A DNA stretch of 64,000 nt from an uncultured Planctomycetaceae bacterium (GTDB lineage Bacteria; Planctomycetota; Planctomycetia; Pirellulales; Thermoguttaceae): contig CAWDLR010000003.1 in assembly GCA_963803125.1 (NCBI GenBank), positions 2,579,548 to 2,643,547 of the forward strand. Direction: 5' to 3'. The notes below the pieces were generated by a model. The model worked only from the letters and a program-made list of their open reading frames with translations, was not told where the DNA came from and did no database searches. Positions 6,627-59,005 of the stretch are shown piece after piece. The position numbers were made by a program, and so were the translations under genes. How positions within the stretch are numbered: position 1 is the stretch's first letter; every line of letters starts with the position of its first letter.

Positions 6627-6779
6627 CTTTTTCACTAGCCCAGGCGTTTACGCCCGGGAGCGAAGAACCCACACCACCGCGCTTTTTCGACTGGTCCCCT
6701 TAAGGGGACCGAATAGAAAAGGAACAGGGGATAAGGCGGCCCTTCCGACCCAGGCGTGAACGCCTGGGCTAGTGAAAAG
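6627..6779. repeat. REP family A composite (CTTTTCACTAGCCCAGGCGTTTACGCCTGGG) inverted pair
   Basis: Arms at 6627-6658 and 6749-6779, with an inner palindrome GGTCCCCTTAAGGGGACC. Lies between gspK and the gspL-like gene. Confidence 0.85.
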
Positions 6780-6901
6780 ACGCGATATCAACGTCGAACT
6801 CGGAGAACTCCTTCAATTGTCAGTGCTGGACGGCATTGCAGCAAAACGTTTTCACTCCACCCCTTATGTCGAGGCATAACTCATGGGTTCACAACTTGGA
6901 T

Positions 6902-8515: not shown

Positions 8516-8542
8516 AGCCCTTGCATCTGCTGCGCGAATGTG

Positions 8543-10707: not shown

Positions 10708-10713
10708 TGGCCG

Positions 10714-11556
10714 CTACTCCAAGGTCGAGCCCGCGTCGGCAACCGTCGCCGTGGCCGTGCTCCCTCGCAGCATAACGCGCAACGCGTAGCTCTGGTTGCA
10801 ACTTAAGATCAACTGAACGTCCGAGGCGGTCCCGTCCGGGTAGAAGAAGATCGGCTCGGACCAGCCGGCGGCCGGCTGATTTTGCGCGGAGGCCGCCGAA
10901 GGCGCTGTGGTCGTGTTCTCGGCAGGCTGCTGGCCGAGGAACTTGACCCCCGTCGGCAGCGTCTTGTTCTCGACGGGTGCAGCGGCATCGGCGGGGGAGG
11001 GCGTGTTGCCGCCGGTCGAACTCGCCGACGCTGGCGCGCCGGTGGCGGTGTTTGCCTCCGGTCCGCGATCCGGCTCGCTGTAGTAATGATCGCCGCCCAC
11101 CTCGTAGCGAAAGGCGTAGGTGCGGCCGGAGCGCATCGCCTCGGTGCGGGCCTGACACCACTCGGTGCGGACTTCGTCGGCCGCCGAGTGCAGACGACGG
11201 TAGGCCAACGGCTTTTCCAGCGCCGGCCAGACCAGCGCCGCCACGATCACCACAATTGCCACTACCAGCAGAACCTCGACCAAGGTGAATCCGTCGCTTG
11301 CCTCTGGTTCCCACGCTCTGCGTGGGAACCGCCCGCCCTTGCCACGTCTTCCTGGTTCCCACGCTCTGCGAGGGAACCGGCTCCCGTCGTCACCCGCCCA
11401 GGCCGTTCCCACGCGGAGCGTGGGAACGAGGAAAGCGCGGAGCGCGGGAACGAGGAGAGCGCGGAGCGTGGGAACGAGGAAAGCGCGGAGCGCGGGAACG
11501 AGGAGAGCGCGGAGCGAGGAAACCAAGAAGGATGTCCATCCATGACGATATCTCAC
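10714..11556 (-). CDS. GspH-like minor pseudopilin with REP-derived N-terminal extension
   Basis: GTG 11556 overlaps the gspG stop (GTGA). The prepilin motif GFTLVEVLLVVAIVVIVAAL begins at codon 89 (11292). Codons 1-88 are REP family C units. Confidence 0.6.
   Translation of the reverse strand: MRYRHGWTSFLVSSLRALLVPALRAFLVPTLRALLVPALRAFLVPTLRVGTAWAGDDGSRFPRRAWEPGRRGKGGRFPRRAWEPEASDGFTLVEVLLVVAIVVIVAALVWPALEKPLAYRRLHSAADEVRTEWCQARTEAMRSGRTYAFRYEVGGDHYYSEPDRGPEANTATGAPASASSTGGNTPSPADAAAPVENKTLPTGVKFLGQQPAENTTTAPSAASAQNQPAAGWSEPIFFYPDGTASDVQLILSCNQSYALRVMLRGSTATATVADAGSTLE
11307..11525. repeat. REP family C array (GTTCCCACGC-NNN-GCGTGGGAAC)
   Basis: Units at 11307-11331, 11354-11378 and 11405-11427, plus short tandem GAGGA(A/G)AGCGCGGAGCG(C/T)GGGAAC repeats to about 11525. 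Lies inside the 5' part of the gspH-like ORF. Confidence 0.85.
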
Positions 11557-11990
11557 CGCGCTGCCTCCTCATTCCAGTTTCCAATATCATCCGGCGTGCC
11601 GTTGACACGGTCGGGGCCAAAAGACCAGACGTCGAAGCTGTCTGGGTTATGCTGCCCGGGACACTGGTACTGATACGGATTGCCCCAGGGATCGGGCGGA
11701 ATATCACTGTCCAGGTACGGTCCCGCCCATTTGGTCGGGTCGGGAAGATCTTGGGGGCAGCTTCGCAGCGCCTGAAGGCTTGTGGGGAAGGAATTGACGG
11801 TTCCTTCGTAGGTCTGTATGGCGCTCTTTAGCAGCAGAACCTGCGCCTTCGCCGCTGCTTTGTTCGTTCTGGCGCGGACGCCCGAGTACGTCCCGACCGC
11901 GAACGAAGCCAGGATGACCAGAATCGTCATGACCAACAATACTTCCATCAGGGTGAAACCACCCTTTTGCCGCGGGGGCGATCGCATCAT
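11553..11990 (-). CDS. gspG: Type II secretion major pseudopilin GspG
   Basis: ATG 11990 preceded by GAGGAG. Leader and motif MMRSPPRQKGGFTLMEVLLVMTILVILA. Classical GspG signature DPWGNPYQY. Confidence 0.85.
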   Translation of the reverse strand: MMRSPPRQKGGFTLMEVLLVMTILVILASFAVGTYSGVRARTNKAAAKAQVLLLKSAIQTYEGTVNSFPTSLQALRSCPQDLPDPTKWAGPYLDSDIPPDPWGNPYQYQCPGQHNPDSFDVWSFGPDRVNGTPDDIGNWNEEAAR

Positions 11991-12093
11991 GTCCAACTCC
12001 TCTTCTGTCGGGGGATAGCGACCACTATCATACTGCGGCCGGCGTGAATTATCAAGCGCATGCCAGCACCGGCCATGGCCGATCAGTTTTCGC

Positions 12094-12176
12094 TGTAGGA
12101 GGCGACTCCTGTCGCCGATTTGCCGCGGTTTCGGCCGGGCGGCACTCCAAATCGGCGACAGGAGTCGCCTCCTACA
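12094..12176. repeat. REP family D pair (TGTAGGAGGCGACTCCTGTCGCCGAT)
   Basis: Arms at 12094-12119 and 12151-12176. The same family occurs at 28547-28618 and 43441-43513. Confidence 0.85.
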
Positions 12177-12461
12177 ATCCCCAAACTGAACAACTGAGCG
12201 GCCCTGCAGCGCCGGCCACAGAGCGCCATCCTCATGATTTAACCCCGCCCAGGGGAGATTGGGTCGCAAATACGCAAATGTTATAATAGACGGTCATAAT
12301 ACCTGTTTCGTTCCGCCTGAAAGAAGATTGGAAGCCTGGCAACCGGGGGATATGCTGTAGCATTCCGGTGTAGAACATCGCTTTGCACCCCCGAGCCCGC
12401 CCAATTACGCTGGTAGATGGCTCTCGTGCGACCGAAATCTTCGGTCTCTTGCTGTCCGCCC

Positions 12462-22898: not shown

Positions 22899-22968
22899 GG
22901 TGGGGCAGACATTCCTGTCTGCCCCGTAGAATGCGGCAAATAGGGCAGACAGGAATGTCTGCCCCACC
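22899..22968. repeat. REP family B pair (GGTGGGGCAGACATTCCTGTCTGCCC)
   Basis: Arms at 22899-22925 and 22943-22968. The same family occurs at 28325-28392, 37301-37325, 39814-39891 and 43885-43954. Confidence 0.85.
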
Positions 22969-28265: not shown

Positions 28266-28324
28266 GACGTTCCCCAACGCTTGAAAAGACAAGGCAGTTC
28301 GGGAAAAAGTACCCATTTCCGCGA

Positions 28325-28392
28325 GGTGGGGCAGACATTCCTGTCTGCCCAGGCGCCGCACAGGCGGGGCAGACAGGAATGTCTGCCCCACC
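28325..28392. repeat. REP family B pair
   Basis: Arms at 28325-28350 and 28366-28392. Confidence 0.85.
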
Positions 28393-30466: not shown

Positions 30467-30556
30467 GAGGAAAAAGGGGAAACGGGGAAAAAGGGAAGCA
30501 ACAGTCTTATCATTTCTTCTTCCCCTTTTCCCCCTTTCCCCTTTTCCCCCTTTTCC
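30467..30556. repeat. Purine/pyrimidine-rich inverted repeat (GGAAAAAGGGGAAACGGGGAAAAAGGG / CCCCTTTTCCCCCTTTCCCC)
   Basis: Arms at about 30467-30498 and 30519-30556, between DUF1080 and ccsA. Confidence 0.7.
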
Positions 30557-33433: not shown

Positions 33434-34037
33434 TCTGGCTGCCCGGATCGAGTCGGCGGCGGAATTGGCGCAAATAGACTTGGAAGCCGAGGTCCAGCGG
33501 CTCGGCCTTTTCGCTCTCGGCGTTCTTTTCGGGCCGAATGATCGCGGCAGTATGATTGGCGTGTCCCTCGTAGATCGACATTTGCGCGTCGACGCCCCAG
33601 AGGCGCGTCAAAGCGCAGCCGGCCAGCAGCACGAGAATGCCGCCGTGCGCCACCAGGAAGCCGATCTGCCGCCGCCGCCAGGGGAGCCGAATCAACATGG
33701 CGGCCAACACGTTGACCGCCAGCACGACGTGAATCGCCGCGAACCAGCGGGTGCCGTAGACCTCGGCCCACGCCGCCGCCGAACCGTGATACTTGTCGAT
33801 GAACGTGGCCACGGCCAAGACGATCACGTAGACCGCGATTGTCACGACCGCCAGTTGCAGCGACGCCAGGGCGCCAAGACAGAGCCGCAATGGGGGCGGA
33901 AGCAGGTGGGCTAGGGACGGAGGCGACCCCGGCTGTGGAATTGGCCCCGCCTGTTCGCCGTCACTCGCCGCCGCATCGACCGCAGCGCCACCGGCCGACG
34001 TCTCGCGCAGCATCTGGTCGTCGCTCTCATCCCTCAT
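33333..34037 (-). CDS. ResB/CcsB N-terminal fragment, out of frame with the downstream ccsBA ORF
   Basis: ResB-like TM pair (LQLAVVTIAVYVIVLAV ... WFAAIHVVLAVNVLAAMLIRL ... GFLVAHGGILVLLAG). It ends LGFQVYLRQFRRRLDPGSQ, then runs on out of frame. MPSYYSSRV continues in the +1 frame at 33433. Confidence 0.7.
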   Translation of the reverse strand: MRDESDDQMLRETSAGGAAVDAAASDGEQAGPIPQPGSPPSLAHLLPPPLRLCLGALASLQLAVVTIAVYVIVLAVATFIDKYHGSAAAWAEVYGTRWFAAIHVVLAVNVLAAMLIRLPWRRRQIGFLVAHGGILVLLAGCALTRLWGVDAQMSIYEGHANHTAAIIRPEKNAESEKAEPLDLGFQVYLRQFRRRLDPGSQNAVVLFEPGRFPRTQQSAETARGREEAARGRAD

Positions 34038-34354
34038 CCTTCATCCCTCATCCTTCCACCTCGGATTTTACCACCACAGAGGGAGAAAGTTTAGACGCCG
34101 CCCGGGTCCGAGTCAGCGATTTCATTTCGGAAAACTCGTCTTGAAGAGGTCCGCGGGGGACCGCCTCGTTGATCGGATGTGGAAAACTCCCGAAACCGCT
34201 GGAAAACAGGACTCTTGCTGAATTTGCCAGCCAACCCTGTTTTAAGGCCCGCCAGAGGGGAACCCTGCGCAAGTTCTCTGGTAGCAGCGTCTTAAGACAA
34301 CTTGTCGGGCCACGGTTGACCTCGATGAGGAAATCATTAGACTTGGACGTTCTC

Positions 34355-34399
34355 GGCTGTATATTGTGGCCAGAGCGGAACGAGGTACAATATATGGTA
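34355..34399 (+). promoter_or_regulatory. Candidate tandem NrdR boxes upstream of nrdJ
   Basis: GGCTGTATATTGTGGC (34355-34370) and TACAATATATGGTA (34386-34399). Both are AT-rich pseudo-palindromes sharing an ACAATATA core. Centres are about 30 bp apart, 50-90 nt upstream of the nrdJ start. Confidence 0.45.
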
Positions 34400-34445
34400 G
34401 GAAGGATGCCAGATCTAACTCCTGATGGAATAAGGAATCTCTCTC

Positions 34446-37400
34446 ATGGACAGACGCGAACATAATACCGGGGAAGCGGTTGCGACGGCCGACCAGCCGA
34501 CAACGAAGCTGAGCAAGACCGTTATTGCGGGGCTGCACGTGCCCGCCCTGTTTTGCCCGGACGACGGCGGCGATCCGTTTGCCACCGTCCAGTGGGATCT
34601 GCGCACGGCAGCGATCAAGGGCGAGGGGGGCGAAGTGCTCTTTGAGCAGAAAGACTGCGAGATGCCCACCTCGTGGAGCCAATTGGCCACCAACGTGGTC
34701 GCCAACAAGTATTTCTACGGCGAGGTGGACACCGGCGAGCGGGAAAAGGGCGTCCGCCAACTCATCCACCGCGTCTGCCGCACGATCGCCGACTGGGGCA
34801 CCCACGACGGCTACTTCGCCAGCAAGGCCGACGGCGAGCGGTTCTACCGCGAGTTGGCCTGGCTCTGCCTGCACCAATACGCCTCATTCAATTCGCCCGT
34901 CTGGTTCAACGTCGGCTTGTATCATCAGTACGGCATCAAGGGGGCGATGTGCAATTGGCACTGGGACCAGACCCGCGGCGAGGCGATTCAGCCGCAGAAT
35001 CCGTACGAGTTTCCGCAGGCGTCGGCGTGCTTCATCCAGAGCGTGGGCGACAACATGGAAGACATCATGGAGCTTGCCCGCAGCGAGGCGATGCTCTTCA
35101 AGTTCGGCTCGGGCACGGGCACCGATCTCTCGACGCTGCGCTCGCACCGCGAGAAGCTCTCCGGCGGCGGCCGCCCCTCCGGGCCGCTGTCCTTTATGAG
35201 GGTCTACGATCAGATTGCGGCCGTGGTGAAAAGCGGCGGCAAGACCCGCCGGGCCGCCAAGATGCAGTCGATCAAGGACTGGCATCCCGACGTGCTGGAG
35301 TTCATCGAGTGCAAGAATCGCGAGGAGAAGAAGGTCCGCACGCTGGTCGAGCAGGGCTACGACGCGCAAGAGGCCTACGACACCGTGCTGTTCCAAAACG
35401 CCAATCTCTCGGTCCGCATCAGCGACGAGTTCATGCGGGCGGTCGAAGCCGATCAGCCCTGGACGACGCACTGGGTCACCAAGCCGGAAGTGGCCGGCCC
35501 AACGTATCCCGCGCGGGAGATGTTCACCAAGATGTCCAACTCCGCCTGGTGCTGCGGCGATCCCGGCGTGCAATACGACAGCACGATCAACCGCTGGCAC
35601 ACCTGCCCGAACTCAGGACGGATCAACGCGAGCAACCCCTGCTCCGAGTACATGTTCGTCGACGATTCGGCCTGCAACCTGGCGAGCATCAATCTGATGA
35701 AGTTCCGCCGCGACGACGGCACTTTCGATCACGAGCGGTTCGTCTCGGCGTGCCGGCTGGTGTTTATCGCCCAGGAAATCCTGGTCGATCACGCCAGCTA
35801 TCCGACGAAGCGAATCGCCGCCAACAGCCATCGCTTCCGGCCGATCGGGCTGGGCTACTCGAACCTGGGCAGCCTGATCATGACCGCCGGGCTGGCGTAC
35901 GATTCCGCAGAAGCCCGCGGGCTGTGCGGCGTGATTACCGCGCTTCTGCACGGGGCGGCCTGCTACACCAGCACCGAACTGGCGGCGGCGGTCGGGCCGT
36001 TCGACGAGTTCGAGAAGAACCGCGAGCCGATGCTCCGCGTGATGGAGATGCACTGGGAGAAGGTCGATCAGATTCCGGCCTGCCCCAAGTCCTTGCAGGA
36101 GGCCGCCCGCGACCTGTGGGACAAGGTGCTCACGCACGGCCGGCGGCTCGGTTTCCGCAACGCCCAGGCCACCGTGCTCGCCCCGACCGGCACGATCAGC
36201 TTCATGATGGACTGCGACACCACCGGCATCGAGCCGGACATCGCGCTGGTGAAGTACAAGCAACTGGCCGGCGGCGGAATGCTGAAAATCGTCAACCAGG
36301 AGGTGCCGCTGGCCCTGGCAACGCTCGGCTACGACCAGCCGGAGATCGACGCCATCGTGGCCTACATCGACAAGCACGACACGATCGAAGGGGCGGCCGA
36401 GCTGAAGCCCGAGCACCTGTCGGTCTTCGACTGCGCCTTTCCGCCGCGGAACGGCCGCCGCTCGATTCCCTGGCGGGCGCACATCCAGATGATGGCGGCC
36501 GCCCAGCCGTTCATCTCCGGGGCGATCTCGAAGACGGTGAACATGCCGCGCGAAAGCACCCCCGACGACGTGGCCGACGCCTACATGGAGGGCTGGCGGC
36601 TGGGGCTGAAGGCGCTGGCCATCTACCGCGACGGCTCGAAGGAGGTGCAGCCGCTTTCGACGAAGTCGAAATCGGACAAGGCGGCCGAGAAGCTGGTGGC
36701 CGCCCCGCGGCGCGAGCGCCTGCCCGATACGCGGCAATCGATCACGCACAAGTTCAGCGTCTCCGGCCACGAGGGCTACATCACCGTCGGGCTCTATCCC
36801 GACGGCCGGCCAGGCGAGCTTTTCATCACCATGGCCAAAGAGGGGAGCACGATCGGCGGGCTGATGGACTGTTTTGGCACCGCCGTTTCGATGAGCCTGC
36901 AATACGGCGTGCCGCTGGAGGTCTACGTCAACAAGTTCTCGCATACCCGCTTCGAGCCGATGGGCTTTACGAAGAACCCGGAGATCAAGATCGCCAAGAG
37001 CATCGTCGATTACATCTTCCGTTGGCTGGGGGTCACGTTCCTGCCGGGCTTCCGCGAGGCGAACAAGATGATGCCGCCATCGCCGACCGACCTGCCACAT
37101 GCCGAGCCGGGGCCGGGAGACGCGGAAACAGAGCCCCGGCCCGCCGCCACGATGGCCGGCGGGCCAGTCGCGGCCAACGGATCGGCGCCCAGCGGCAGCG
37201 GAGCGAAGGCCGCGGCCCAAGCCTCCGGCAACGGCCAGGCAGCATCGAAGCAGGCGGCCAAGCGCAACGGCTCGCCCGCCGCGGCCGCAAAGAAGGATCG
37301 GGTGGGGCAGACATTCGTGTCTGCCGCTCCCGTGGCACAGCCATCCCTGACTGTCACGACCTTGTTCGAGCCCTTCGGCGCTTCGCTCTCGCGGAGCGAG

Positions 37401-37517
37401 CAATTCGCCTCGTTCCAGACCGACGCCCCCGCCTGCGACAACTGCGGCGCGATCACCGTCCGCAGCGGTAACTGCTACCTGTGTTACAACTGCGGGAGCA
37501 GTATGGGGTGTTCGTAA
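34446..37517 (+). CDS. nrdJ: Class II (adenosylcobalamin-dependent) ribonucleotide reductase
   Basis: Typical NrdJ blocks (FNSPVWFN, ACFIQSV.DNMEDI, FKFGSGTG.DLS.LR, NPCSEY.F.DDSACNLASINL, TISFMMDCDTTGIEPD, ISKTVNMP, GLKA.AIYRDGSK). C-terminal Cys cluster CDNCG..CYLCYNCG. Confidence 0.92.
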   Translation: MDRREHNTGEAVATADQPTTKLSKTVIAGLHVPALFCPDDGGDPFATVQWDLRTAAIKGEGGEVLFEQKDCEMPTSWSQLATNVVANKYFYGEVDTGEREKGVRQLIHRVCRTIADWGTHDGYFASKADGERFYRELAWLCLHQYASFNSPVWFNVGLYHQYGIKGAMCNWHWDQTRGEAIQPQNPYEFPQASACFIQSVGDNMEDIMELARSEAMLFKFGSGTGTDLSTLRSHREKLSGGGRPSGPLSFMRVYDQIAAVVKSGGKTRRAAKMQSIKDWHPDVLEFIECKNREEKKVRTLVEQGYDAQEAYDTVLFQNANLSVRISDEFMRAVEADQPWTTHWVTKPEVAGPTYPAREMFTKMSNSAWCCGDPGVQYDSTINRWHTCPNSGRINASNPCSEYMFVDDSACNLASINLMKFRRDDGTFDHERFVSACRLVFIAQEILVDHASYPTKRIAANSHRFRPIGLGYSNLGSLIMTAGLAYDSAEARGLCGVITALLHGAACYTSTELAAAVGPFDEFEKNREPMLRVMEMHWEKVDQIPACPKSLQEAARDLWDKVLTHGRRLGFRNAQATVLAPTGTISFMMDCDTTGIEPDIALVKYKQLAGGGMLKIVNQEVPLALATLGYDQPEIDAIVAYIDKHDTIEGAAELKPEHLSVFDCAFPPRNGRRSIPWRAHIQMMAAAQPFISGAISKTVNMPRESTPDDVADAYMEGWRLGLKALAIYRDGSKEVQPLSTKSKSDKAAEKLVAAPRRERLPDTRQSITHKFSVSGHEGYITVGLYPDGRPGELFITMAKEGSTIGGLMDCFGTAVSMSLQYGVPLEVYVNKFSHTRFEPMGFTKNPEIKIAKSIVDYIFRWLGVTFLPGFREANKMMPPSPTDLPHAEPGPGDAETEPRPAATMAGGPVAANGSAPSGSGAKAAAQASGNGQAASKQAAKRNGSPAAAAKKDRVGQTFVSAAPVAQPSLTVTTLFEPFGASLSRSEQFASFQTDAPACDNCGAITVRSGNCYLCYNCGSSMGCS
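37301..37325. repeat. Single REP family B unit inside the nrdJ low-complexity linker
   Basis: GGTGGGGCAGACATTCGTGTCTGCC, translated as RVGQTFVSAA. Confidence 0.75.
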
Positions 37518-37520
37518 GAG

Positions 37521-37580
37521 AGGGGTTGGGGGCTGGGGATCAGGGGCCAGGGGCCAGAGGTTAGGGATTGGGGATTGGGA
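37521..37580. repeat. G-tract repeat family K (GGGGTTGGGGGCTGGGGATCAGGGGCCAGGGGCC...GGGATTGGGGATTGGG)
   Basis: At least 5 consecutive G4-5 runs with 2-5 nt loops. Related copies lie at 58872-58915 and, as the complement, at 54975-55005. Confidence 0.75.
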
Positions 37581-37629
37581 CGCCGCCGCGAGGCTGCGGT
37601 CGGTCGGGGCTTCCAGTGTGGAGCGAACA

Positions 37630-39087
37630 ATGGTTGAATTTGACCTGCGATCGGAGGCATTCAGGAGGGCGGTGCTCAACACGGAGAGACGAGCGGAGCG
37701 GCAACTGTACGATGAGAGGCTGGTCAGGTGTTTCGTGCCCAACCGCGTCCTAGAGGAGCTTGACAATAATCAAAATCAACTCCTATTCGGCAGGCGAGGC
37801 GTCGGCAAGACTCATACGCTCAAGGCGTTCTTGGGAAAGAAAGCATCAGGCGGGACACTCTGCCATTATCTCGATTGCACCGCATTTGGCAGCGGACTCG
37901 GCGTGGACGGATCCCGCAGGAACGTAGGGGTCCGCTTCTTCTCCAAGCTTCTCTCCAACCTCGCAGACAGCCTGCTCGATGATGCCACGCTGACGGAGAA
38001 GCCAGACAAAACTCTTCACGACGACCTTCAGAGCATTCTGCTACAATTCTCCGACCTCATCGGTCCGAAGTCCATCGGCGAGACCTTCGATTACTCTGCA
38101 ATTGCCGGTGCGATCTCCCGATTCCTCGATCGACTGCGCACTGATAGACTGATTCTGCTTATAGACGAGTGGGCTCAGATTCCACCGCCGGCACAGCCGT
38201 ATTTTGCCGAGTTCCTTAAGCGTGCGTTCTTCGCCAACGCGCGGGTTACAGTGAAGGTCGGTGTGGTGGATTATGCCTATAGATTAAGCGAACGAATTGG
38301 CGGTCAATTGATCGGTCTTGAGAGGTCGGCCGACATCTTCACCGACATTCGGATGGACCGCTTCTTTGTCTGGGATCAAGATGAGGAATTCGTCGAGCGG
38401 TTCTTCGCAGAGGTCCTGTTCAACCACTTGGTTCTTGAGCTTGATACCGCGCAGGAATGCCAGCCGGATGAGAAGGCGAACATCGTCTCCAACCAACTTT
38501 TTACGCAACGCCGCGTGCTCTCGGAATTGTGTCGTGCGTGCGAGGGCAACGCCAGGGACTTTCTCGTGCTCTTCGGAAAGGCGCACGCGAGGTACCGGCA
38601 GCAGACCGCACATCAGAAGGTCGGACTTGAGGATGTTCATAGCGCAGCAATCGACCTTTATCGCGGTGACAAGTACGCAAACATCTCCACGGAGAAGCCT
38701 CTCGAGGATTTTCTGGAGTATCTCGTGCATTCGATCATTAAGGAAAAGCGAGCGCGGACCTTCATGGTGCCATATCAATCTCGCAACCACCCTTTGCTCG
38801 CGCGCCTCTTTAGTGCCCGAATTCTTCACCCGCTGAACGTGGAGTGGTCACATCCACATGTTCCTGGGGAGCGGTACAGCCTCATCACGATGGACTACGG
38901 AACATACGCCTCGTTCCGCGGCACCAAGAGCGAGCCCGACCAGAAGTTGTTCTGGGGACAAGAAGGTCAAGGGGTTGAGAAGGCTGACGACCTTGTGCCG
39001 TTTGATGACCGGCGGAGCATTCGGCGAATTGTGGTGGAGAAAGATGTTCTGGACAATTTCTCCGGAAGAATGGCCGACGACTGCTAA
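37630..39087 (+). CDS. Orphan AAA+ P-loop ATPase (Orc1/Cdc6-like core plus probable wHTH tail), lower GC
   Basis: GGAG 7 nt upstream of ATG 37630. Walker A GRRGVGKTH. Walker B LILLIDEWAQI. Lid-like EGNARDFLVLFGKA. C-terminal about 130 aa are helix-rich. A hand count gives 30/60 GC at 38281-38340, against 45/60 in nrdJ at 36421-36480. Confidence 0.7.
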   Translation: MVEFDLRSEAFRRAVLNTERRAERQLYDERLVRCFVPNRVLEELDNNQNQLLFGRRGVGKTHTLKAFLGKKASGGTLCHYLDCTAFGSGLGVDGSRRNVGVRFFSKLLSNLADSLLDDATLTEKPDKTLHDDLQSILLQFSDLIGPKSIGETFDYSAIAGAISRFLDRLRTDRLILLIDEWAQIPPPAQPYFAEFLKRAFFANARVTVKVGVVDYAYRLSERIGGQLIGLERSADIFTDIRMDRFFVWDQDEEFVERFFAEVLFNHLVLELDTAQECQPDEKANIVSNQLFTQRRVLSELCRACEGNARDFLVLFGKAHARYRQQTAHQKVGLEDVHSAAIDLYRGDKYANISTEKPLEDFLEYLVHSIIKEKRARTFMVPYQSRNHPLLARLFSARILHPLNVEWSHPHVPGERYSLITMDYGTYASFRGTKSEPDQKLFWGQEGQGVEKADDLVPFDDRRSIRRIVVEKDVLDNFSGRMADDC

Positions 39088-39094
39088 GGACGCA

Positions 39095-39156
39095 CAAAGG
39101 GGATAAGTACAATTTCTGAGGCGGAGAATGATAAGTAATTGGACTTATCCCCTTTG
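39095..39156. repeat. REP family H-like hairpin (AAAGGGGATAAGTACAATT / AATTGGACTTATCCCCTTT) after the ATPase stop
   Basis: Arms at 39095-39114 and 39137-39156. Family members lie at 55136-55214 and 55774-55858. Confidence 0.7.
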
Positions 39157-39311
39157 TTTGCCCCCTTTGTTTGCCTCTGACCCGGACTCCTCCCTTGGGC
39201 GTTCGCCCAGCGGACCACGGCGGTCATGATACCCCTTCCCACGCGGGGACACAAGGAGCATAGGCCGGAGCGGGCCGGAAAACCGTGGCCCGAACGCGGA
39301 ACTACGAACGG

Positions 39312-39431
39312 AGGTTCACTACATTCTGCGGCGTGCCGGCGAGGAAGGCTTTGACGTTCGCCACGGTTACGTTGAGCAGGCGTTCGCGGGCGGCGCGGGT
39401 GGCCCAGGCGACGTGCGGGGTGATGTAGCAG
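39312..39431 (-). pseudogene. Duplicated 3'-terminal fragment of the 2-hydroxyacid dehydrogenase gene
   Basis: 120 nt are visually identical to 40036-40155. The fragment encodes YITPHVAWATRAARERLLNVTVANVKAFLAGTPQNVVNL and has no upstream catalytic part. Confidence 0.75.
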
Positions 39432-39813
39432 CGGGTAGCCCCGGTTCTCGAACCGGGGCGGCTTTGCCGCAAGAGGTGGAGCGGCAACGCCAGCGCGCAT
39501 CGCCTCCCGCATGGCCTCTTGGGCGTTCGCCCACCGGTTCAAGAACCGGTGCCACCCAGCGAGACCGCACGGCGGAGCACCTGTTGCGGAACCTGCTCCG
39601 TCACGCCGCGCGCAATGCGCATCGGAAAAAGGGGTCAGGCGGAAAAAGGGGACATTGTTGATTGTGGCAAACCGGACGACCAATAATCAGTGATGTCCCC
39701 TTTTCCGTCCCGTTCTCAGCGTTCGCAAGGACCGCTTCGAGCTCGCGCCTCACATACCGCAACTAGTGTAGTGTCTCACACAGATCGTGCTTTATGAACA
39801 AGAGACAGAAACA

Positions 39814-39891
39814 GGTGGGGCAGACATTCCTGTCTGCCCTAGATGTTCCCACTTGCCTGGTTCCTGGGCAGACAGGAATGTCTGCCCCACC
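39814..39891. repeat. REP family B pair
   Basis: Arms at 39814-39839 and 39866-39891. Confidence 0.85.
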
Positions 39892-40025
39892 TGTCGCCAT
39901 TTTATAAGTTAACCCAATTACGAGACACTACACTAGTCTACCGTAGCGCTCATAATACCCCTTCTGTTGCGGGGACACAAGCAGCACGGGCCACCGACGT
40001 GGAAGACTGCCACGCGACGGCAGCA

Positions 40026-41033
40026 CTACGAAGCGAGGTTCACTACATTCTGCGGCGTGCCGGCGAGGAAGGCTTTGACGTTCGCCACGGTTACGTTGAG
40101 CAGGCGTTCGCGGGCGGCGCGGGTGGCCCAGGCGACGTGCGGGGTGATGTAGCAGTTGGGGGCGGTTAGCAACGGGTGATCGGCCGGCGGCGGCTCGTCG
40201 TCGGAGAGCACGTCGAGGCCGGCGCCGGCGATTTGGCCATCATGCAGCGCTGCGGCCAACGCCGGCTCGTCAACCAGCGGCCCACGGCTGGTGTTGATCA
40301 GATAGGCCGATCGCTTCATCATTGCCAACCGCTCGGCATTTACCAGATTCTGCGTCTCCGGCGTCAAGGGGCAATGCAGGCTGACAACGTCGCTTTGGCG
40401 GAAGAGATCGTCGAGAGCGACCAGTTGCACGGCTGTTGGCGGGAAGGGGACAGTCCCATTTTCGCTGGCGCGAAAACTGGAACAGTCCCCGGTAATCAGC
40501 TTGTCGGACGCCAGCACCTTCATTCCCATCGCCAGGGCGACCTGGGCCGTCGCCCGGCCGATGCGGCCGAAGCCGACTATTCCCATTGTCAAGCCGGCCA
40601 CTTCGACCAGCGGGAAATCCCAATAGCAGAAATCGGGGCTGCGGCTCCAACGCCCTTCGGCCACGCCGCGAGCGTGCTCGGCGACGTGGAGCGTGAGGTT
40701 TAGCAGGTGGGCAAAGACCATCTGCACGACCGACGGCGTGGCATAGTCGGGCACATTACAGACGACGATCCCCCGCTGCCGCGCGGCGGCGACGTCGACG
40801 ATGTTGTAGCCCGTGGCCGTCACGGCGATGCACTTCAGCCGCGGCAGCCGGGCAATAGTCTCTCGCGAAAGCTGGACCTTGTTGGTCACCAGGATGTCGG
40901 CCTCGGCCGCGCGCGATACCAACTCTGCAGGCGACATCCTGTCGTAGATCGTACACGAGCCGAGGGCCTCCAGGGCGGCCCAGCTCAGGTCACCGGGATT
41001 GAGGGCATAGCCATCGAGAACGACGATTCGCAT
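40026..41033 (-). CDS. D-isomer-specific 2-hydroxyacid dehydrogenase (glycerate dehydrogenase/hydroxypyruvate reductase family)
   Basis: GGAGGAGG upstream of ATG 41033. NAD fold GIVGFGRIGRATAQVA. Also HCPLTPET..L, INTSRG.LVDE.AL, G.DV...EP and TPHVAW. Confidence 0.85.
   Translation of the reverse strand: MRIVVLDGYALNPGDLSWAALEALGSCTIYDRMSPAELVSRAAEADILVTNKVQLSRETIARLPRLKCIAVTATGYNIVDVAAARQRGIVVCNVPDYATPSVVQMVFAHLLNLTLHVAEHARGVAEGRWSRSPDFCYWDFPLVEVAGLTMGIVGFGRIGRATAQVALAMGMKVLASDKLITGDCSSFRASENGTVPFPPTAVQLVALDDLFRQSDVVSLHCPLTPETQNLVNAERLAMMKRSAYLINTSRGPLVDEPALAAALHDGQIAGAGLDVLSDDEPPPADHPLLTAPNCYITPHVAWATRAARERLLNVTVANVKAFLAGTPQNVVNLAS
40447..40490. repeat. REP family G unit inside the dehydrogenase gene
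   Basis: Translated in frame as ..CSSFRASENGTVPFP.. Confidence 0.75.
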
Positions 41034-41186
41034 GGACAAATGGGAACCTCCTCCACCCCCTCCACGGCCTTGGTTTGGGGGTGCTTGTGAGATTTTCTTT
41101 AGCGTACCCCTTGGGCAGCTCCCGCACAAGTGGTACAATAAAACGACACTTGTTGGAACTGCTCCGTAAGCAAGACTAGAGAAGCC

Positions 41187-41351
41187 ATGAACAAGACAGA
41201 ATCAGACGCCAAGCTGGCGAAAGTGAAATTGGCGTTGGCCGAGAAGTGCGAGCGGCTGGCGAAGCTATCCACCAGCACGCCGAAACGCAACACAATGCTG
41301 TACCAGGCGGCCCGATTTCGCCGGCAAGCGGCCGATTTGACCCGACAATAG
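41187..41351 (+). CDS. Possible small helical protein (54 aa)
   Basis: ATG..TAG ORF below the ORF-track cutoff (MNKTESDAKLAKVKLALAEKCERLAKLSTSTPKRNTMLYQAARFRRQAADLTRQ). It ends 6 nt before the yqgE-like start. No other support. Confidence 0.3.
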   Translation: MNKTESDAKLAKVKLALAEKCERLAKLSTSTPKRNTMLYQAARFRRQAADLTRQ

Positions 41352-41357
41352 CGGACT

Positions 41358-41909
41358 ATGGAATCGCTGGAAGGCCACCTGCTGGTCGCGGCGCCCCAAC
41401 TGCTCGACCCGAACTTCGCTCGCTGCCTGGTATTGCTGGTCGAGCACAACCAGGAGGGGGCGTTCGGCGTGATCGTCAACCGGCCGGTGGGCAAGACCTT
41501 GCAAGAGTTGTGGCGCGAGGTGGGCAGCGCGCCGTGCCACAGCCGGCAGCCGATCTACCTCGGCGGCCCCGTGCCCGGCCCGTTGCTTTCGCTGCACACG
41601 CAGCGCGAGCTGGCCGAAACCGAGCCGGTGCCCGGCGTCTACTTCGCCGCGAAGAAGCAGCACCTCGACAAACTGGTGCTCAACGAAGAGCCGGCGTACA
41701 AGATTTTCATCGGCCATGCCGGCTGGGGGGCGGGACAACTCGAGAACGAACTGAAGCAGGGTGATTGGCGGACGCTGCCCGCCACGGCCGAACACATCTT
41801 CTCCACCGCCGACGACCTGTGGGAGAACGTGCTGCGGCAGATCGGCCACGAAATGCTCAAGTCGATTCTCAAGCTGGACGAACTTCCGCCCGATCCGACG
41901 CTGAACTGA
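41358..41909 (+). CDS. YqgE/AlgH-family (UPF0301) protein
   Basis: LEGHLLVAAPQLLDPNFARCLVLLVEHNQEGAFGVIVNRP...GGPV...GHAGWGAGQLE.E...W. Confidence 0.85.
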   Translation: MESLEGHLLVAAPQLLDPNFARCLVLLVEHNQEGAFGVIVNRPVGKTLQELWREVGSAPCHSRQPIYLGGPVPGPLLSLHTQRELAETEPVPGVYFAAKKQHLDKLVLNEEPAYKIFIGHAGWGAGQLENELKQGDWRTLPATAEHIFSTADDLWENVLRQIGHEMLKSILKLDELPPDPTLN

Positions 41910-41930
41910 CTTTTCTGCCGGGGAGAGCCG

Positions 41931-43406
41931 ATGGGAACGATGCGATTCTCCGTCTTTCCTCCCGAACGCATCACGGCCGAGACGGTCCAGCAGGCGTATT
42001 TGGCGGGAATCGACCGCGTCTCATGGCCGGCGCGGACGAGCGTGGAAGGCGGTGAGTTGGTCCTTCAGCGTTCGGTCTCCGACTCGGCCAACCTGCACGT
42101 TCCCTGGTGGGTCGGGGGGCAGGGTGTGTTGACGCTCTCTTCGCCCAGTCTGATCGAGCGTGCCGAGCCATATCGCCTGCCGTTGGAGCTGGCCCGCGGC
42201 ACGGTCGTGCAGGTGCGGAATCAACTCAGCGACTGGCAGGCGATCGGGCTGGTCGTGCCCGAGGCGGTACACGCCAAGTTGGCGGCGGCGGTCGAGCGGC
42301 TCTCCTGGGCGGCGGTCGAGCAGGCGGACGCCGCAGTTTCGGCCGCCCGTGCCGAAGAGTCGCTCCGCGCGGCGCTCGAGGCGGCCAACCTGCTGGCGGC
42401 GGCCTACGCCGAGCAGGCGATTGTCGCCCGCCGCCGCAACGACGGGCCGCCTTTCGCCTTGCTTGCCGGAGACCTGACCACGACGCTGCTGGACGATCAG
42501 ATCGCGCGGCAGTTTCTCCGCACGTTCAATGCCGCCGAATTGCCCATCTGTTCGCGCGAGACGGAGACCACCGAAGGGCACATGACCTGGGTGGTCAACG
42601 ACAAGCAGGTGGAATGGTGCCGCAAGCACGGGCTGAAGATCCTCGCCGGCCCGCTTTTGCTGCTCGCTCCACAGTCGCTGCCCGACTGGCTCTCGCTGTT
42701 TGAAGACGACTTCGAAAGCGTGCTGGAATGCGCCTCGGCCTTCATCCGCACGGCCGTGGAGCGGTATCGCGGCAAGGTCGATTATTGGATCTGCGCCGGG
42801 CGGGTCAATGCCGCGGGGGTGTTGCCGCTTTCCGATCAGAAACGGCTGCGGCTGGCGGTGCAGGCCGTGGAACTCGTCCGTTCCTTAGATCCGGACACGC
42901 CGGCGCTGATCTCCTTCGACCAGCCCTGGGCCGAATACATGCTGCAACAGCACTCCGATTTTCCTACGCTGCAATTTGCCGACGCGCTGGTCCGGGGTGG
43001 ACTGGACCTGGGTGGGCTGATGATGGAAATCAACGTCAGCCGCCAGCCGGGCGGAACCTCGCCGCGGCAAGTGCTGGAATTCAGTCGGCAATTGGACGAA
43101 TGGGCAAAGCTGGGGCTGCCGCTGTGGCTGTCGGTCTCGGCCCCCAGCGACGAGCACGACGATCCCCTGGCGCAGCGGCGGGCGGCGATGTCGCCCGGCG
43201 GATGGACCCCGCTGGCGCAGCAGCGCTGGGCGGCGCGGTTCGTGCCGCTGGCCTTGGCCAAACCGCCGCTGCACGGCGTGATCTGGAATCAACTCTGCGA
43301 CGGCAAGCCGCACGATTTCCCCCACGCCGGCCTGTTCGACGCCGATGCCCACGCCAAGCCGGTCCTCCGCACGCTGGCGGCAATCCGCAAGACGCACTTG
43401 ACGTAG
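41931..43406 (+). CDS. Conserved hypothetical protein (possible TIM-barrel glycosidase-like)
   Basis: 491-aa ORF with coding-like composition, no signal peptide and no motif I can assign confidently. Confidence 0.5.
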   Translation: MGTMRFSVFPPERITAETVQQAYLAGIDRVSWPARTSVEGGELVLQRSVSDSANLHVPWWVGGQGVLTLSSPSLIERAEPYRLPLELARGTVVQVRNQLSDWQAIGLVVPEAVHAKLAAAVERLSWAAVEQADAAVSAARAEESLRAALEAANLLAAAYAEQAIVARRRNDGPPFALLAGDLTTTLLDDQIARQFLRTFNAAELPICSRETETTEGHMTWVVNDKQVEWCRKHGLKILAGPLLLLAPQSLPDWLSLFEDDFESVLECASAFIRTAVERYRGKVDYWICAGRVNAAGVLPLSDQKRLRLAVQAVELVRSLDPDTPALISFDQPWAEYMLQQHSDFPTLQFADALVRGGLDLGGLMMEINVSRQPGGTSPRQVLEFSRQLDEWAKLGLPLWLSVSAPSDEHDDPLAQRRAAMSPGGWTPLAQQRWAARFVPLALAKPPLHGVIWNQLCDGKPHDFPHAGLFDADAHAKPVLRTLAAIRKTHLT

Positions 43407-43440
43407 GCGGCGGAACTTATTGACCCGCGCAGTTCACTAT

Positions 43441-43513
43441 TGTACGAGGCGACTCCTGTCGCCGATATTGCGATTTTTTCCCCGCTGATCGGCGACAGGA
43501 GTCGCCTCCTACA
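43441..43513. repeat. REP family D pair
   Basis: Arms at 43441-43466 and 43488-43513. Confidence 0.85.
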
Positions 43514-43531
43514 ATACCGTGCTCGATCCAT

Positions 43532-44842
43532 TCACGCCGCTTCGCCGAGCAATGCCTGCTTATGCCGCGGCCCGCGCTCGTGCCATAGAAGCCAGGCGGC
43601 AAAGAGCACAACGCCTAAGGGGAGGAGGATTTTGCCGGCGGGAAACACCAGGCGGACGACCGCCTCAAGGTCGCCGGAAGCGAACATCGCCAGCGTCGCC
43701 CAGGCCGTCACGGTCAGCCAACGAGCACGTTTCTCGTCAAAACTGACGATCACCGCCCAACTGGCCGCGGGGGCGATGATGCCGTAGGTGAGCTGTTCGC
43801 TGCCCGGCCCGAAGAACAACTGCCACGAGGCCCAGATCGAGAAGATCAGCAGCAGCAGGCGGCTCGCTGCGCCTTTCTGAAAAGGGTGGGGCAGACATTC
43901 TTGTCTGCCTCGGGCAACCCCGGGGCTTGGGCAAACAAGAATATCTGCCCCACCGGAGGCGATCTTCAGTCGCCGATATTGCCGCCAACACCAGTAGAGC
44001 ACGCCGCCGGCCGCGATCAATCGCAGCGCCATGTATACATGATGCTGGCACGGCGAAGCGAGCGATCGCCGCATGCCCGTGGGAGAGAGCGCTGCCCAAA
44101 TTGTCCATGCGTCGCGGTATCCGGGCCAGGTGTTCTTAAGGAGGGGTCCCGTCAGCGCGTTGTACCATTCGCAGTATTGCCACTTGACCATGCCGGGCGG
44201 CCGCGTCAGAAATGGAACCAGCGCCAGCACCGCGCAAACCACCGCAAAACGCCAGCCCAGTTGCCGCGGCCAAAACACCAGCAACAGCATTACAATCGCC
44301 AGCGGCCAGACCTTGATGAAGACCGCTACCGCCAACAGCGTCGCCGCCCACCACCACCGCTGCCGCACGATCGCCGCCAATGCCAACATGATCGTGGCAA
44401 TGACGATGGCGTTGCTCTGCGCCGACCAGATGCCCACGATCGAGCCGGGCAGCGCCAGCATCAAAAACAGGCCCTCGCGCTCCGGCGGCCACTCGCCAGG
44501 CAATACGTCGCGGGCGAAAACGTGCAGGGCCCAAACCAGCAGAAGGATGCTGGCAACGTCCCAGACCATCGTTCCCAGTCGCGGGGGTAGGTAAGCCAGC
44601 GGCGTGAAGGCGACGGCAAACGTCGGCGAGTAACGATAGCCGTCGATATGCTCCGTCGCCCAATAGTTGGCATAGAGCGACTTGTCGGCCCACCAGTGGT
44701 GCGAGCCGGCGGCGAATTGCGGAAAGACCGACCGCGGCTGCGCCGACACGGCCGCCTTCACACACACCGCCACGGCCAAACAGGCCCAGAGCGTTACCGC
44801 TCGGCGCAGATGTTTATTGGTGAGCAGGCGGGAAGATGTCAT
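43532..44842 (-). CDS. Polytopic membrane glycosyltransferase-like protein (DUF2029/GT87-like)
   Basis: About 10 predicted TM segments. N-proximal loop WWADKSLYANYW..DGYRYSPTFAVAFTPLAYLP resembles the DUF2029 signature. Contains an in-frame REP family B insert. Confidence 0.5.
   Translation of the reverse strand: MTSSRLLTNKHLRRAVTLWACLAVAVCVKAAVSAQPRSVFPQFAAGSHHWWADKSLYANYWATEHIDGYRYSPTFAVAFTPLAYLPPRLGTMVWDVASILLLVWALHVFARDVLPGEWPPEREGLFLMLALPGSIVGIWSAQSNAIVIATIMLALAAIVRQRWWWAATLLAVAVFIKVWPLAIVMLLLVFWPRQLGWRFAVVCAVLALVPFLTRPPGMVKWQYCEWYNALTGPLLKNTWPGYRDAWTIWAALSPTGMRRSLASPCQHHVYMALRLIAAGGVLYWCWRQYRRLKIASGGADILVCPSPGVARGRQECLPHPFQKGAASRLLLLIFSIWASWQLFFGPGSEQLTYGIIAPAASWAVIVSFDEKRARWLTVTAWATLAMFASGDLEAVVRLVFPAGKILLPLGVVLFAAWLLWHERGPRHKQALLGEAA
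43885..43954. repeat. REP family B pair inside the DUF2029-like gene
   Basis: Arms at 43885-43909 and 43929-43954. Translated as ..GGADILVCPSPGVARGRQECLPHP.. Confidence 0.8.
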
Positions 44843-58690: not shown

Positions 58691-58761
58691 GAAGAGTGGG
58701 AGACGGGGAGGAGGGGAGAGAGGAGAGGGGAGAGGGGAGAGGGGAAGACGGCGGGCGAGGA

Positions 58762-58856
58762 GCCCTCACGCCGGGCCCCTCTCCCGCGAACGGGCGAGGG
58801 GAGGCGGGGACGAACAGCCCTCACCCCCGGCCCCTCTCCCGCGAGCGGGCGAGGGG
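58762..58856. repeat. Two REP family F units (opposite orientation)
   Basis: Units at 58762-58801 and 58817-58856. Confidence 0.8.
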
Positions 58857-58871
58857 GAGGACGTTGTCGTC

Positions 58872-58915
58872 AGGGGCTGGGGGCTAGGGGCTGGGGATCA
58901 GGGGTCAGAGGCCAA
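58872..58915. repeat. G-tract repeat family K copy
   Basis: GGGGCTGGGGGCTAGGGGCTGGGGATCAGGGGTCAG. Confidence 0.75.
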
Positions 58916-58921
58916 GGTTCC

Positions 58922-59005
58922 CATCATTCATCACTCATCATTCATCACTCATCATTCATCACTCATCCTTCATCCCTCATCCTTCATCCCTCATCCTTCA
59001 TCCCC
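58922..59005. repeat. 14-bp tandem repeat in two variants (CATTCATCACTCAT x3, then CCTTCATCCCTCAT x about 2.5)
   Basis: Directly downstream of the pat stop. The second variant recurs at 34021-34058. Confidence 0.8.

Follow-up and report, generated by a model that had tools for sequence, protein, structure and literature searches.

A solitary, horizontally acquired ORC/Cdc6-like AAA+ ATPase at a synteny breakpoint in a planctomycete genome

What does an ATPase that is built like a replication initiator do when it stands alone between unrelated genes? This question is raised by a locus of an uncultured Planctomycetaceae bacterium (GTDB family Thermoguttaceae), for which we analyzed a stretch of 64,000 nucleotides (assembly GCA_963803125.1, contig CAWDLR010000003.1, positions 2,579,548 to 2,643,547), hereafter called the window. 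A gene for a 485-residue ATPase, referred to here as the ORC-like gene, lies between nrdJ and a duplicated end of a D-2-hydroxyacid dehydrogenase gene. An earlier note on this DNA, made from its sequence alone, had described the product as an orphan Orc1/Cdc6-like AAA+ ATPase and a candidate accessory or defense gene. The annotation that we arrive at is that of an intact, horizontally acquired ATPase of the Pfam family PF24389 at a synteny breakpoint, and not of an nrdJ-linked core gene. With regard to function, the balance tilts modestly toward a self-sufficient, ATP-gated and probably DNA-binding switch from the ORC/Cdc6-STAND branch of the AAA+ ATPases, with an accessory role in conflicts or in the biology of mobile elements.

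The open reading frame (ORF) of the gene is on the + strand, ends at 39087 and can begin either at a GTG at 37618 (489 aa) or at an ATG at 37630 (485 aa), the latter also being the start of the database protein P0001 (485 aa, on a contig of 3.27 Mb). As had been noted earlier, the gene has its own ribosome-binding site, a GGAG located 6 nt before the ATG. No recognizable promoter was found for it. The features of the gene and its product are listed below. Residues called invariant, here and later, are so in an alignment of 76 full-length homologs; the conservation value given for a region tells how frequent the commonest residue is, averaged over the alignment columns.

37620..37623, + strand: Shine-Dalgarno-like GGAG, 6 nt upstream of the ATG, read from the sequence
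37630..39087, + strand: coding sequence of the 485-aa stand-alone ORC/Cdc6-like AAA+ ATPase (PF24389), with an alternative GTG start at 37618
37789..37815, + strand: Walker A (P-loop) GRRGVGKTH, aa 54-62, with invariant G54, R55, R56, G57, G59, K60 and H62
37915..38139, + strand: variable helical insert between beta2 and beta3, aa 96-170, with helices at 96-120, 127-142 and 155-169 in the structural model
38149..38172, + strand: Walker B LILLIDEW, aa 174-181, with invariant D179 and E180
38542..38562, + strand: lid and sensor-2 motif EGNARDF, aa 305-311, with invariant E305, G306, R309 and D310
38620..39084, + strand: C-terminal domain, aa 331-485, modeled as two helices, a winged-helix-like (WH-like) alpha/beta unit (376-430), a variable disordered loop (431-455), a tail and a helix
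38995..39039, + strand: motif VPFDDRRSIRRIVVE, aa 456-470, the best conserved in the family, with invariant V456, P457, D460 and R465

All three motifs that had been picked out by eye in the 485-residue protein (Walker A, Walker B and EGNARDF) are indeed present, and their key residues are invariant in the 76 homologs. The AAA+ core expected of an Orc1/Cdc6 initiator, with both Walker sites intact and a lid arginine of the sensor-2 type, is present, the invariant residues being K60, D179/E180 and R309. Approximately 30 residues ahead of Walker A, an N-terminal helix carries an invariant R21 and E23, which would correspond to the R-E motif found in ATPases of the Cdc6/AAA_16 type. As read from the sequence, the nucleotide-binding set of R-E helix, Walker A, Walker B and sensor-2 arginine is complete. 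In the region from beta4 to the lid (aa 205-290), the invariant residues are G229, D235, D243 and H266, and there is no invariant arginine among them.

Conservation is unevenly distributed along the protein. It reaches 0.82 in the tail motif, which is written VPFDDRRSIRRIV for aa 456-468 and is followed by the final helix, and is 0.61 both in the WH-like unit and in the Walker B region. The insert at aa 96-170, with a value of 0.36, is the least conserved and most indel-rich part, and the largest insertions fall after residues 138 and 149. This segment presumably takes the place of the initiator-specific/HEH insert in ATPases of the ORC/Cdc6 type, where ORC, Cdc6 and DnaA carry a DNA-contacting initiator-specific motif. 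The insert is a candidate specificity determinant.

The family assignment agrees with the identity that the earlier note had proposed. The protein matches the Pfam model PF24389 ("ORC-CDC6-like") with 49.1 bits (E = 4.8e-13), which is above the gathering threshold of 27 bits, and the same precomputed assignment is found on nearly all of the full-length homologs. The model has 571 positions, and the 485-aa subgroup aligns well only to its N-terminal 40-50 residues and to a second stretch. The window protein belongs to a shorter subclade rich in Planctomycetota and Chloroflexota, which is 30% identical to the majority of 520-560 aa. Other Pfam matches are below threshold, including AAA_16, AAA_22 (2.4e-4), ATPase_2 (PF01637; 14.5 versus 33.2 bits) and IstB (0.073; 13 versus 24.1 bits). 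The nearest NCBIfam model is NF047389 (Sll1717 family P-loop ATPase), of which the protein is not a member (32.1 bits versus a cut-off of 75 bits, aa 26-128 only); the NCBIfam matches to IstB (E 0.011) and IS21_help (15 versus 200 bits) are likewise below cut-offs. A profile made from the 76 sequences gave only weak matches among PDB sequences, to DnaA (1.3e-4) over the P-loop and to the lid of the clamp-loader gamma/tau subunit over the EGNARDF helix, and it also touches DnaC and DnaI. A scan against PHROGs gave nothing significant. In a literature search, we found no paper that names PF24389 or Sll1717, none that gives the family a function by experiment and none on a stand-alone bacterial ORC/Cdc6-like system; the term "ORC-CDC6-like" occurred only in a paper on BREX, where it denotes a different, inactive domain. 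The window protein thus joins a family that is catalogued in Pfam and that nobody appears to have characterized.

Two other memberships were considered and rejected. Assignment to the STAND NTPases of the NACHT, NB-ARC or Avs type was rejected because there are no sensor repeats or effector domains, and nSTAND3 is matched with E = 0.22. Membership among the IS21 IstB, Tn7 TnsC or TniB proteins was rejected on the basis of sub-threshold scores with hidden Markov models (HMMs) and the absence of a recurrent transposase neighbor.

The predicted structure points to the same relationship. An AlphaFold2 model of the full-length protein, built on the homolog alignment, has a predicted local distance difference test score (pLDDT) of 90.8 and a predicted template modeling score (pTM) of 0.88, and only residues 438-457 are disordered. 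When this model was compared with the PDB by Foldseek, the best match was Drosophila Orc1 (7jgr_A, E 2.3e-6), and the top ten, all of which are ORC/Cdc6 chains, include the Sulfolobus Cdc6/Orc1 pair bound to origin DNA (2qby_A/B, E 3.6e-6 and 1e-5) as well as human ORC4 and ORC1 (E down to 8e-5). Weaker matches comprise RFC subunits, RdrA of RADAR (~3e-4), MalT (8bob) and the archaeal ATPase SSO1545 (E 4.3e-4), the last with the best template modeling (TM) scores of the list (0.39/0.50, root-mean-square deviation 8.1). The alignments with Orc1/Cdc6 span 444-461 columns with a sequence identity of 11-16% and TM-scores of 0.3-0.45, which are low because the domains are oriented differently. As modeled, the overall fold is most like Orc1/Cdc6. 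A library of viral structures yielded only generic clamp-loader/RFC matches.

From the N terminus, the domains follow in the order R-E helix, AAA+ core with the 75-residue insert, lid, two helices, WH-like unit, loop, tail motif and helix. The earlier note had suggested that the C-terminal region could be a winged helix-turn-helix (wHTH), and this suggestion holds in part. An alpha-beta-alpha-alpha-beta-beta topology at aa 356-421 of the models fits such a domain, as do the Orc1/Cdc6 alignments of ~450 columns. When aa 331-485 were modeled alone, however, the domain had no significant match in the PDB (best E 0.46), and winged-helix proteins (TFIIE-beta, LmrR and RTP) appeared only at E > 0.6 with a probability below 0.2. 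Because the isolated domain lacks a significant match, we call it winged-helix-like by topology and not a confirmed wHTH. The motif at aa 456-470 packs back onto the C-terminal domain in the full-length model and does so confidently in the model of aa 331-485 as well; thus, the tail belongs to the C-terminal fold.

How does the protein compare with systems that are better known? Its best structural matches over nearly the whole length are Orc1/Cdc6 and ORC (2qby, 7jgr), with which it shares an AAA+ core whose beta2 is followed by a helical insert, a lid that bears the sensor-2 arginine, and a C-terminal alpha/beta unit of winged-helix topology. The upstream R-E motif is also alike. The sensor-2 motif of Cdc6 is of the GDAR type, in place of EGNARDF in the window protein. 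Unlike Orc1/Cdc6, the window protein has extra helices before the WH-like unit and an ultra-conserved C-terminal tail that returns to the domain, and it lacks an invariant Box VII arginine. Moreover, replication initiators are encoded by core genes linked to an origin, whereas this gene does not belong to the core and showed no such link; the protein therefore does not qualify as an initiator in the biological sense.

The compact archaeal ATPases of PF01637 (SSO1545, 2fna) similarly combine AAA+ and WH domains, but their C-terminal domain differs and the tail does as well. Helpers such as IstB, DnaC and DnaA resemble it in the P-loop and bind DNA or a helicase in an ATP-dependent way, as the window protein presumably would; the latter has no transposase or replisome partner and a different domain order. 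Among defense systems, ATPases of the ORC/Cdc6 clade occur in BREX (BrxC), the phosphorothioation system Ssp (SspC) and the Orc/CDC6-HerA/FtsK-REase "capture" systems, where they are invariably accompanied by partner genes and have additional domains; systems against invaders often employ this branch of AAA+ as a scaffold or sensor associated with DNA (PMC10853773, PMC12839542). The window protein is of the same AAA+ branch as BrxC, SspC, the capture ATPases and RdrA of RADAR (Foldseek E = 3e-4 for RdrA). Those proteins have, for example, a methyltransferase, PglZ, nuclease, deaminase or HerA as partners and are much larger or carry an iREase, an extra wHTH or other domains, whereas the window family has neither such partners nor such domains and no PADLOC match.

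Is the gene native to this genome? The observation that it is more AT-rich than its neighbors was borne out, including the exact count of 30 G or C among the 60 nucleotides at 38281-38340. The gene has 55.1% GC and 66% GC at third codon positions (GC3), versus 64-67% and 77-88%, respectively, for six neighboring genes. It is the lowest-GC stretch of its length (1.46 kb) in the window, which has ~63% GC overall, and lies at the 0.16th percentile. When compared with homologs of 71% identity, the gene shows a proportion of nonsynonymous differences (pN) of 0.18, whereas the synonymous proportion (pS) is saturated; the gene is intact and under purifying selection. Both of its junctions (37340-37662 and 39024-39340) are spanned by independent short-read contigs from a freshwater-sediment metagenome, at a depth of ~4-5x that equals that of the flanks. 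Because these contigs cross both junctions at flank depth, the order of nrdJ, the ORC-like gene and the duplication is not an assembly chimera. Given the foreign composition and the finding that relatives have other genes at the same junction (see below), the gene was acquired horizontally, as a single gene.

The segmental duplication that follows the gene, as had been reported, is real. Positions 39220-39431 and 39946-40155 are 87% identical over 212 bp, and the duplicated unit consists of the last ~130 bp of the dehydrogenase gene plus ~80 bp downstream of it. The parts of this region are as follows.

39220..39431, - strand: remnant copy of the dehydrogenase 3′ end and its downstream region, with the ancestral end ...NLRS-stop as in relatives
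39432..39945, no strand: repeat-rich spacer of 514 bp between the copies, including a palindrome at 39811-39894, with high metagenome depth
39946..40155, - strand: copy that is now joined to the dehydrogenase gene (40026-41138, - strand), with a changed end

When aligned with two relatives, the detached copy keeps ...NLRS-stop followed by TTCCGC.TTC.GGC, and the copy joined to the gene ends in ...NLAS-stop. Judged from the alignment, something appears to have inserted into the dehydrogenase gene at its 3′ end and to have brought a replacement end with it. With a distance of 724-726 bp between the two copies, there is too little room for an autonomous element. This integration-like footprint (39220-40155) stops just short of the ORC-like gene.

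The nearest homologs of the dehydrogenase are 82-84% identical and are found on Pirellulales/Thermoguttaceae-like contigs. Two long contigs among them (L115 and L116) retain the genes on its 5′ side, which encode a DUF179 protein, a 491-aa protein and a GT87 protein (corresponding to 41358-44842 of the window). On the 3′ side, L115 has a DDE_3 transposase fragment (11355-12294) and L116 has an XRE-family helix-turn-helix gene (11023-11634), and neither contig has nrdJ or an ORC-like gene within 10 kb beyond the dehydrogenase. Because different genes follow the 3′ end of the dehydrogenase gene, the ORC-like gene marks a break in synteny whose content differs among members of the lineage. On the evidence of gene order, this junction marks what appears to be a hotspot of rearrangement or insertion in the lineage. 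An exact empty site was sought in relatives whose dehydrogenase is 82-83% identical and was not found, as the junction there is rearranged; for this reason, the boundaries of the insertion cannot be defined.

The spacer between the copies is itself made of repeats. Positions 39339-40006 have a depth of 28-112x in the source metagenome (word depth), versus ~5x for the flanking genome. The segment is multicopy, has CCCCGGTTCTCGAACCGGGG and CACCGGTTCAAGAACCGGTG among its several palindromes, and may be a repeat cluster like those of miniature inverted-repeat transposable elements or of repetitive extragenic palindromic (REP) sequences. The palindrome at 39811-39894 has perfect arms of 29 nt (ACAGGTGGGGCAGACATTCCTGTCTGCCC...) and recurs at 22899-22968, 28324-28392 and 43885-43954, with a half-copy inside nrdJ (37301-37325). 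When translated, it yields an "ECLPH"-type peptide in many spurious ORFs. The same palindrome produced false "joints" during contig placement and sub-threshold microRNA (miRNA) matches in Rfam; indeed, an Rfam scan of 33800-41500 returned only sub-threshold "miRNA" matches to it.

To what extent is this gene an oddity of one genome? A word-indexed search returned 137 relatives, the best of which is 73% identical and most of which are unnamed or called "hypothetical protein". A profile search of 1.84 billion representatives returned 2,232 clusters (at 50% identity) at E ≤ 1e-3 and 702 at E ≤ 1e-30. With few exceptions, these are 480-560 aa in length, match from end to end and share one architecture. 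At least 483 loci were confirmed in 185,579 species genomes (one per species), or ~0.3%, from more than ten phyla. The hosts are found in Planctomycetota, Chloroflexota, Actinomycetota, Bacteroidota, Pseudomonadota (alpha, beta and gamma), Desulfobacterota, Cyanobacteria, Acidobacteriota, Verrucomicrobiota, Firmicutes and Eremiobacterota, along with one Methanobacterium. Cultured hosts include Mycolicibacterium neoaurum ATCC 25795, Streptomyces sanyensis, Nostoc and Burkholderia glumae (plasmid bglu_4p). The family is spread thinly and very patchily, is not core, and crosses distant phyla as a single gene.

Ten longer members were scanned for additional domains. Four of them (P0226, P0238, P0241 and P0244, ~650-660 aa) form a subgroup with a C-terminal FHA domain, which binds phosphothreonine; one (P0159, 1011 aa) has a second P-loop NTPase domain at its N terminus, and the rest have extensions without a significant Pfam domain. 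No nuclease, TIR, protease or other effector was fused to any of the ten, nor was an effector domain seen elsewhere in the family; the window protein has none either, as had been noted earlier.

The claim that the gene has no partner was likewise upheld. In an all-versus-all BLASTP comparison of the ORFs within 4 kb at ~80 loci, no neighbor family was present at more than four loci. The 134 nearest neighbors of homologs fall into 125 Pfam families, none of which is present at more than two loci, and they are mostly metabolic or housekeeping genes, with two integrases and one Mutator-family transposase among them. PADLOC matches among these 134 were DarG, a DRT reverse transcriptase, a methyltransferase, a UvrD-like helicase and, twice, mad2. 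There is no conserved small flanking ORF, as the search for one gave only antisense artifacts over the conserved 5′ end of the gene. In the contexts examined for which neighbors were identified, nrdJ adjoins no homolog, and together with the patchy distribution of the family this argues against a core gene syntenic with nrdJ, the outcome that the earlier note had named as refuting its reading.

Individual contexts vary widely. The gene is accompanied by an MNT/HepT pair and an iREase fragment in L003, by a PIN gene with a 98-aa neighbor (presumably the antitoxin) in L005, by DUF2442, DUF433 and a CAP12/TIR protein within 5 kb in L001, and by Type I restriction-modification (RM) fragments in L121. 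It has housekeeping neighbors in L118 (DnaE and an aldo-keto reductase) and on the P0021 contig (DUF2752 and a glycosyl hydrolase). L120, a contig of betaproteobacterial type, has a tyrosine integrase and a DnaB-family helicase; at 5479-11886 the integrase is followed by a small ORF, the ORC-like gene, an ORF of 212 aa and the helicase, and from this gene order the stretch looks like a small integrative element. A pair of AAA_15/AAA_23 ATPases lies 5 kb beyond the integrase-DnaB stretch. Of the nine Pfam-annotated contexts, seven have toxin-antitoxin (TA), RM, TIR or integrase genes no more than 5 kb away, a raw count that has no background control. A census of integrases by iterative HMM search from one seed gave two matches, was too narrow and was abandoned.

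Some copies are on plasmids. Members were found on 22 Burkholderia glumae plasmids, almost all of which are typed as conjugative; on one of these, bglu_4p, the ORC-like gene adjoins an AAA-ATPase/UvrD pair and a gamma-mobile-trio element, and the plasmid has its own typed replicon. One member on an Acetobacter plasmid is near IS5, integrase and TIR genes. A homolog is also present on 26 contigs of IMG/VR (predicted proviruses), where the gene is skewed toward the contig ends, lying in the outer 20% in 9/21 (binomial p = 0.014).

How, then, might such a protein work? In the switch that we favor, ATP binding would close the lid, after which the conserved WH-like C-terminal domain, as a constant surface, and the hypervariable insert at aa 96-170 would engage nucleic acid, with the insert setting the specificity. 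As the protein lacks an enzymatic domain, its output would presumably be steric, either by occupancy or oligomerization on DNA or by capture of a replication factor. The FHA fusions suggest that some members read phospho-signals. An accessory role in conflicts is favored because of the phyletic pattern, the foreign composition, the copies on plasmids and at provirus edges, and the TA, RM or TIR neighbors in part of the family. Taken singly, the likeliest role is to interfere with replicons that invade or compete (defense against phages or plasmids, or an exclusion function that mobile elements carry), which we hold tentatively and at somewhat less than even confidence. We are more doubtful of the specific form in which the protein is a single-gene immune or exclusion system that lacks an effector, wherein the insert and the WH-like domain would recognize a feature of invading replicons and these would be stopped non-enzymatically, either by occupancy of the DNA in the manner of an origin-recognition protein or by trapping of the replicative helicase or its loader. 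If this form were true, prokaryotes would employ the fold of a replication initiator in immunity, and no effector of the nuclease, NADase or membrane type would be required.

Several observations weigh against the favored interpretation. With PADLOC-DB v2, the window protein has only sub-significant matches (mad8 at 6.5e-4 and PDC-M28C at 0.014), and the best NCBIfam antiphage model is DS41_1 at E 0.0074, with 15 bits versus a cut-off of 370 bits. The neighborhood in the window and those of several homologs, such as L118, are purely housekeeping, and few of the 134 neighbors are defense-like. Thus the defense reading did not stand in the form given earlier, and a defense role is a reasonable but unproven hypothesis. 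The absence of an effector domain makes the output conjectural, and the absence of an invariant arginine where the Box VII arginine finger is expected makes oligomerization uncertain. For DNA binding, the isolated C-terminal domain without a significant PDB match is the adverse point. No homolog was found in 50,697 genomes of isolated phages. The end skew on the IMG/VR contigs is a statistic that is weakened because several of these contigs are related to each other.

Other explanations have to be set against the conflict-related switch. In archaea, Orc1/Cdc6 acts as an initiator, and the family could comprise replication or maintenance factors of mobile elements, either initiators or helicase loaders for plasmids or integrative elements, whose solitary chromosomal copies are remnants or domesticated survivors of elements that have decayed. 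The replication-initiator fold and the profile similarity to DnaA, DnaC and DnaI are consistent with this, as are the L120 copy between a tyrosine integrase and a DnaB-family helicase, the members on conjugative or mobilizable plasmids and in provirus predictions, and the location of the window copy at a repeat-rich breakpoint beside a footprint that resembles site-specific integration into a gene 3′ end. We nevertheless consider it unlikely. Helicase, integrase and other element genes are not nearby in nearly all of the ~80 loci, and the solitary copies are full length, retain all invariant residues and are under purifying selection, which is unexpected of relics. Furthermore, the Burkholderia plasmid comes with a typed replicon of its own, and no repeated iteron-like sites adjoin the gene. 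The idea of an orphaned transposition helper (of the IstB, TniB, TnsC or MuB type) that has lost its transposase draws on the weak AAA_22 (2.4e-4) and IstB (0.073 in Pfam and 0.011 in NCBIfam) matches, the Mutator-family transposase and two integrases among the 134 neighbors, and the nearby IS5 on the Acetobacter plasmid. Because those matches are below cut-offs and confined to the P-loop, no transposase recurs as a neighbor, no terminal inverted repeats surround the gene, and the conserved C-terminal domain is unlike that of such helpers, this explanation is very improbable.

A role within the host has also to be weighed. The combination of an NTPase with a WH-like unit, and the presence of MalT (8bob) among the Foldseek matches, would suit an ATP-dependent transcription regulator or nucleoid-associated switch that pairs AAA+/STAND with a wHTH in the manner of MalT; the C-terminal FHA of some members could provide phospho-signaling input, and many loci are in housekeeping neighborhoods. 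Such a regulator is improbable in view of the lack of a conserved target operon or neighbor, the extremely patchy distribution (~0.3% of species genomes), the foreign composition in the window, and the absence of a sensor repeat or ligand-binding domain. Finally, a gene that is solitary, foreign in composition, located in a rearrangement hotspot and devoid of a recognizable promoter could be a decaying, non-functional passenger. Its full-length frame, however, is unbroken and keeps every residue that is invariant in the family, pN is 0.18 against a saturated pS, and the gene has its own ribosome-binding site and a terminator-like hairpin, all of which makes decay scarcely credible.

These results bear on how initiator-type ATPases are used. 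ATPases of the ORC/Cdc6 clade serve as scaffolds in multi-gene defense systems (BREX, Ssp and RADAR) and as replication initiators, and a lone version without an effector is widespread. If the protein protects against phages or plasmids, an initiator-type ATPase would be sensor and effector in one protein, in a compact single-gene system that has members in cultured hosts. If it does not, the gene is still a clean case of a solitary gene that crosses phyla and lands between housekeeping genes. It is a good and cheap candidate for a single-gene defense screen, and nothing here shows an unusual mechanism.

The repeats on either side of the gene were also inspected.

37521..37580, + strand: G-tract (GGGG-N3-4) repeat in the spacer between nrdJ and the ORC-like gene, of a type found in intergenic regions genome-wide
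39094..39157, + strand: strong stem-loop with 24-nt arms that are 92% complementary, 7 nt past the stop codon

The upstream G-tract repeat is present where it had been placed and is one of many. The pattern GGGG-N3-GGGG-N4-GGGG has 16 matches in the window versus 1.3 expected, and the repeat at 37521-37580 has an 88% copy at 58880-58919. GGGG-N3-4-GGGG repeats are strongly over-represented in intergenic DNA (37521-37580, 58698-58919, 30522-30549 and others), and from their sequence they have the potential to form G-quadruplexes. On the other side of the gene, the hairpin itself had been correctly located, but nothing ties it to a REP family, as its earlier label implied. The ~100 nt that include it have a folding energy of -31.8 kcal/mol, and the T-rich tandem repeat CCCCTTTGTTTGC x2 follows. 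Because the stem-loop begins 7 nt after the stop codon and precedes this T-rich repeat, a terminator role is plausible, and from its sequence the stem-loop is likely a transcription terminator. A simple terminator scan did not call it, and at homolog loci the downstream hairpins are of unrelated sequence, such that this stem-loop is not conserved. No inverted repeats bracket the ORC-like gene, no conserved hairpin marks a mobile cassette, no repeated iteron-like sites adjoin the gene, and no tRNAs are located within 25-50 kb. The hairpin and the G-tract are ordinary intergenic repeats of the host that lie outside the gene's own system, and the G-tract probably has no share in the gene's function.

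Additional observations concern more distant parts of the window and nrdJ. A tandem heptamer-like repeat (CATCATT / CATCACT / CATCCTT ...) is present at 58920-59000, directly after the G-tract cluster. Upstream of nrdJ, no cobalamin riboswitch was detected at E ≤ 0.1. The 3′ end of nrdJ (36900-37517) encodes a class II ribonucleotide reductase with a long low-complexity linker rich in Ala, Pro and Gly, after which the C-terminal tail is Cys-rich and zinc-ribbon-like (CDNCG...CYLCYNCG).

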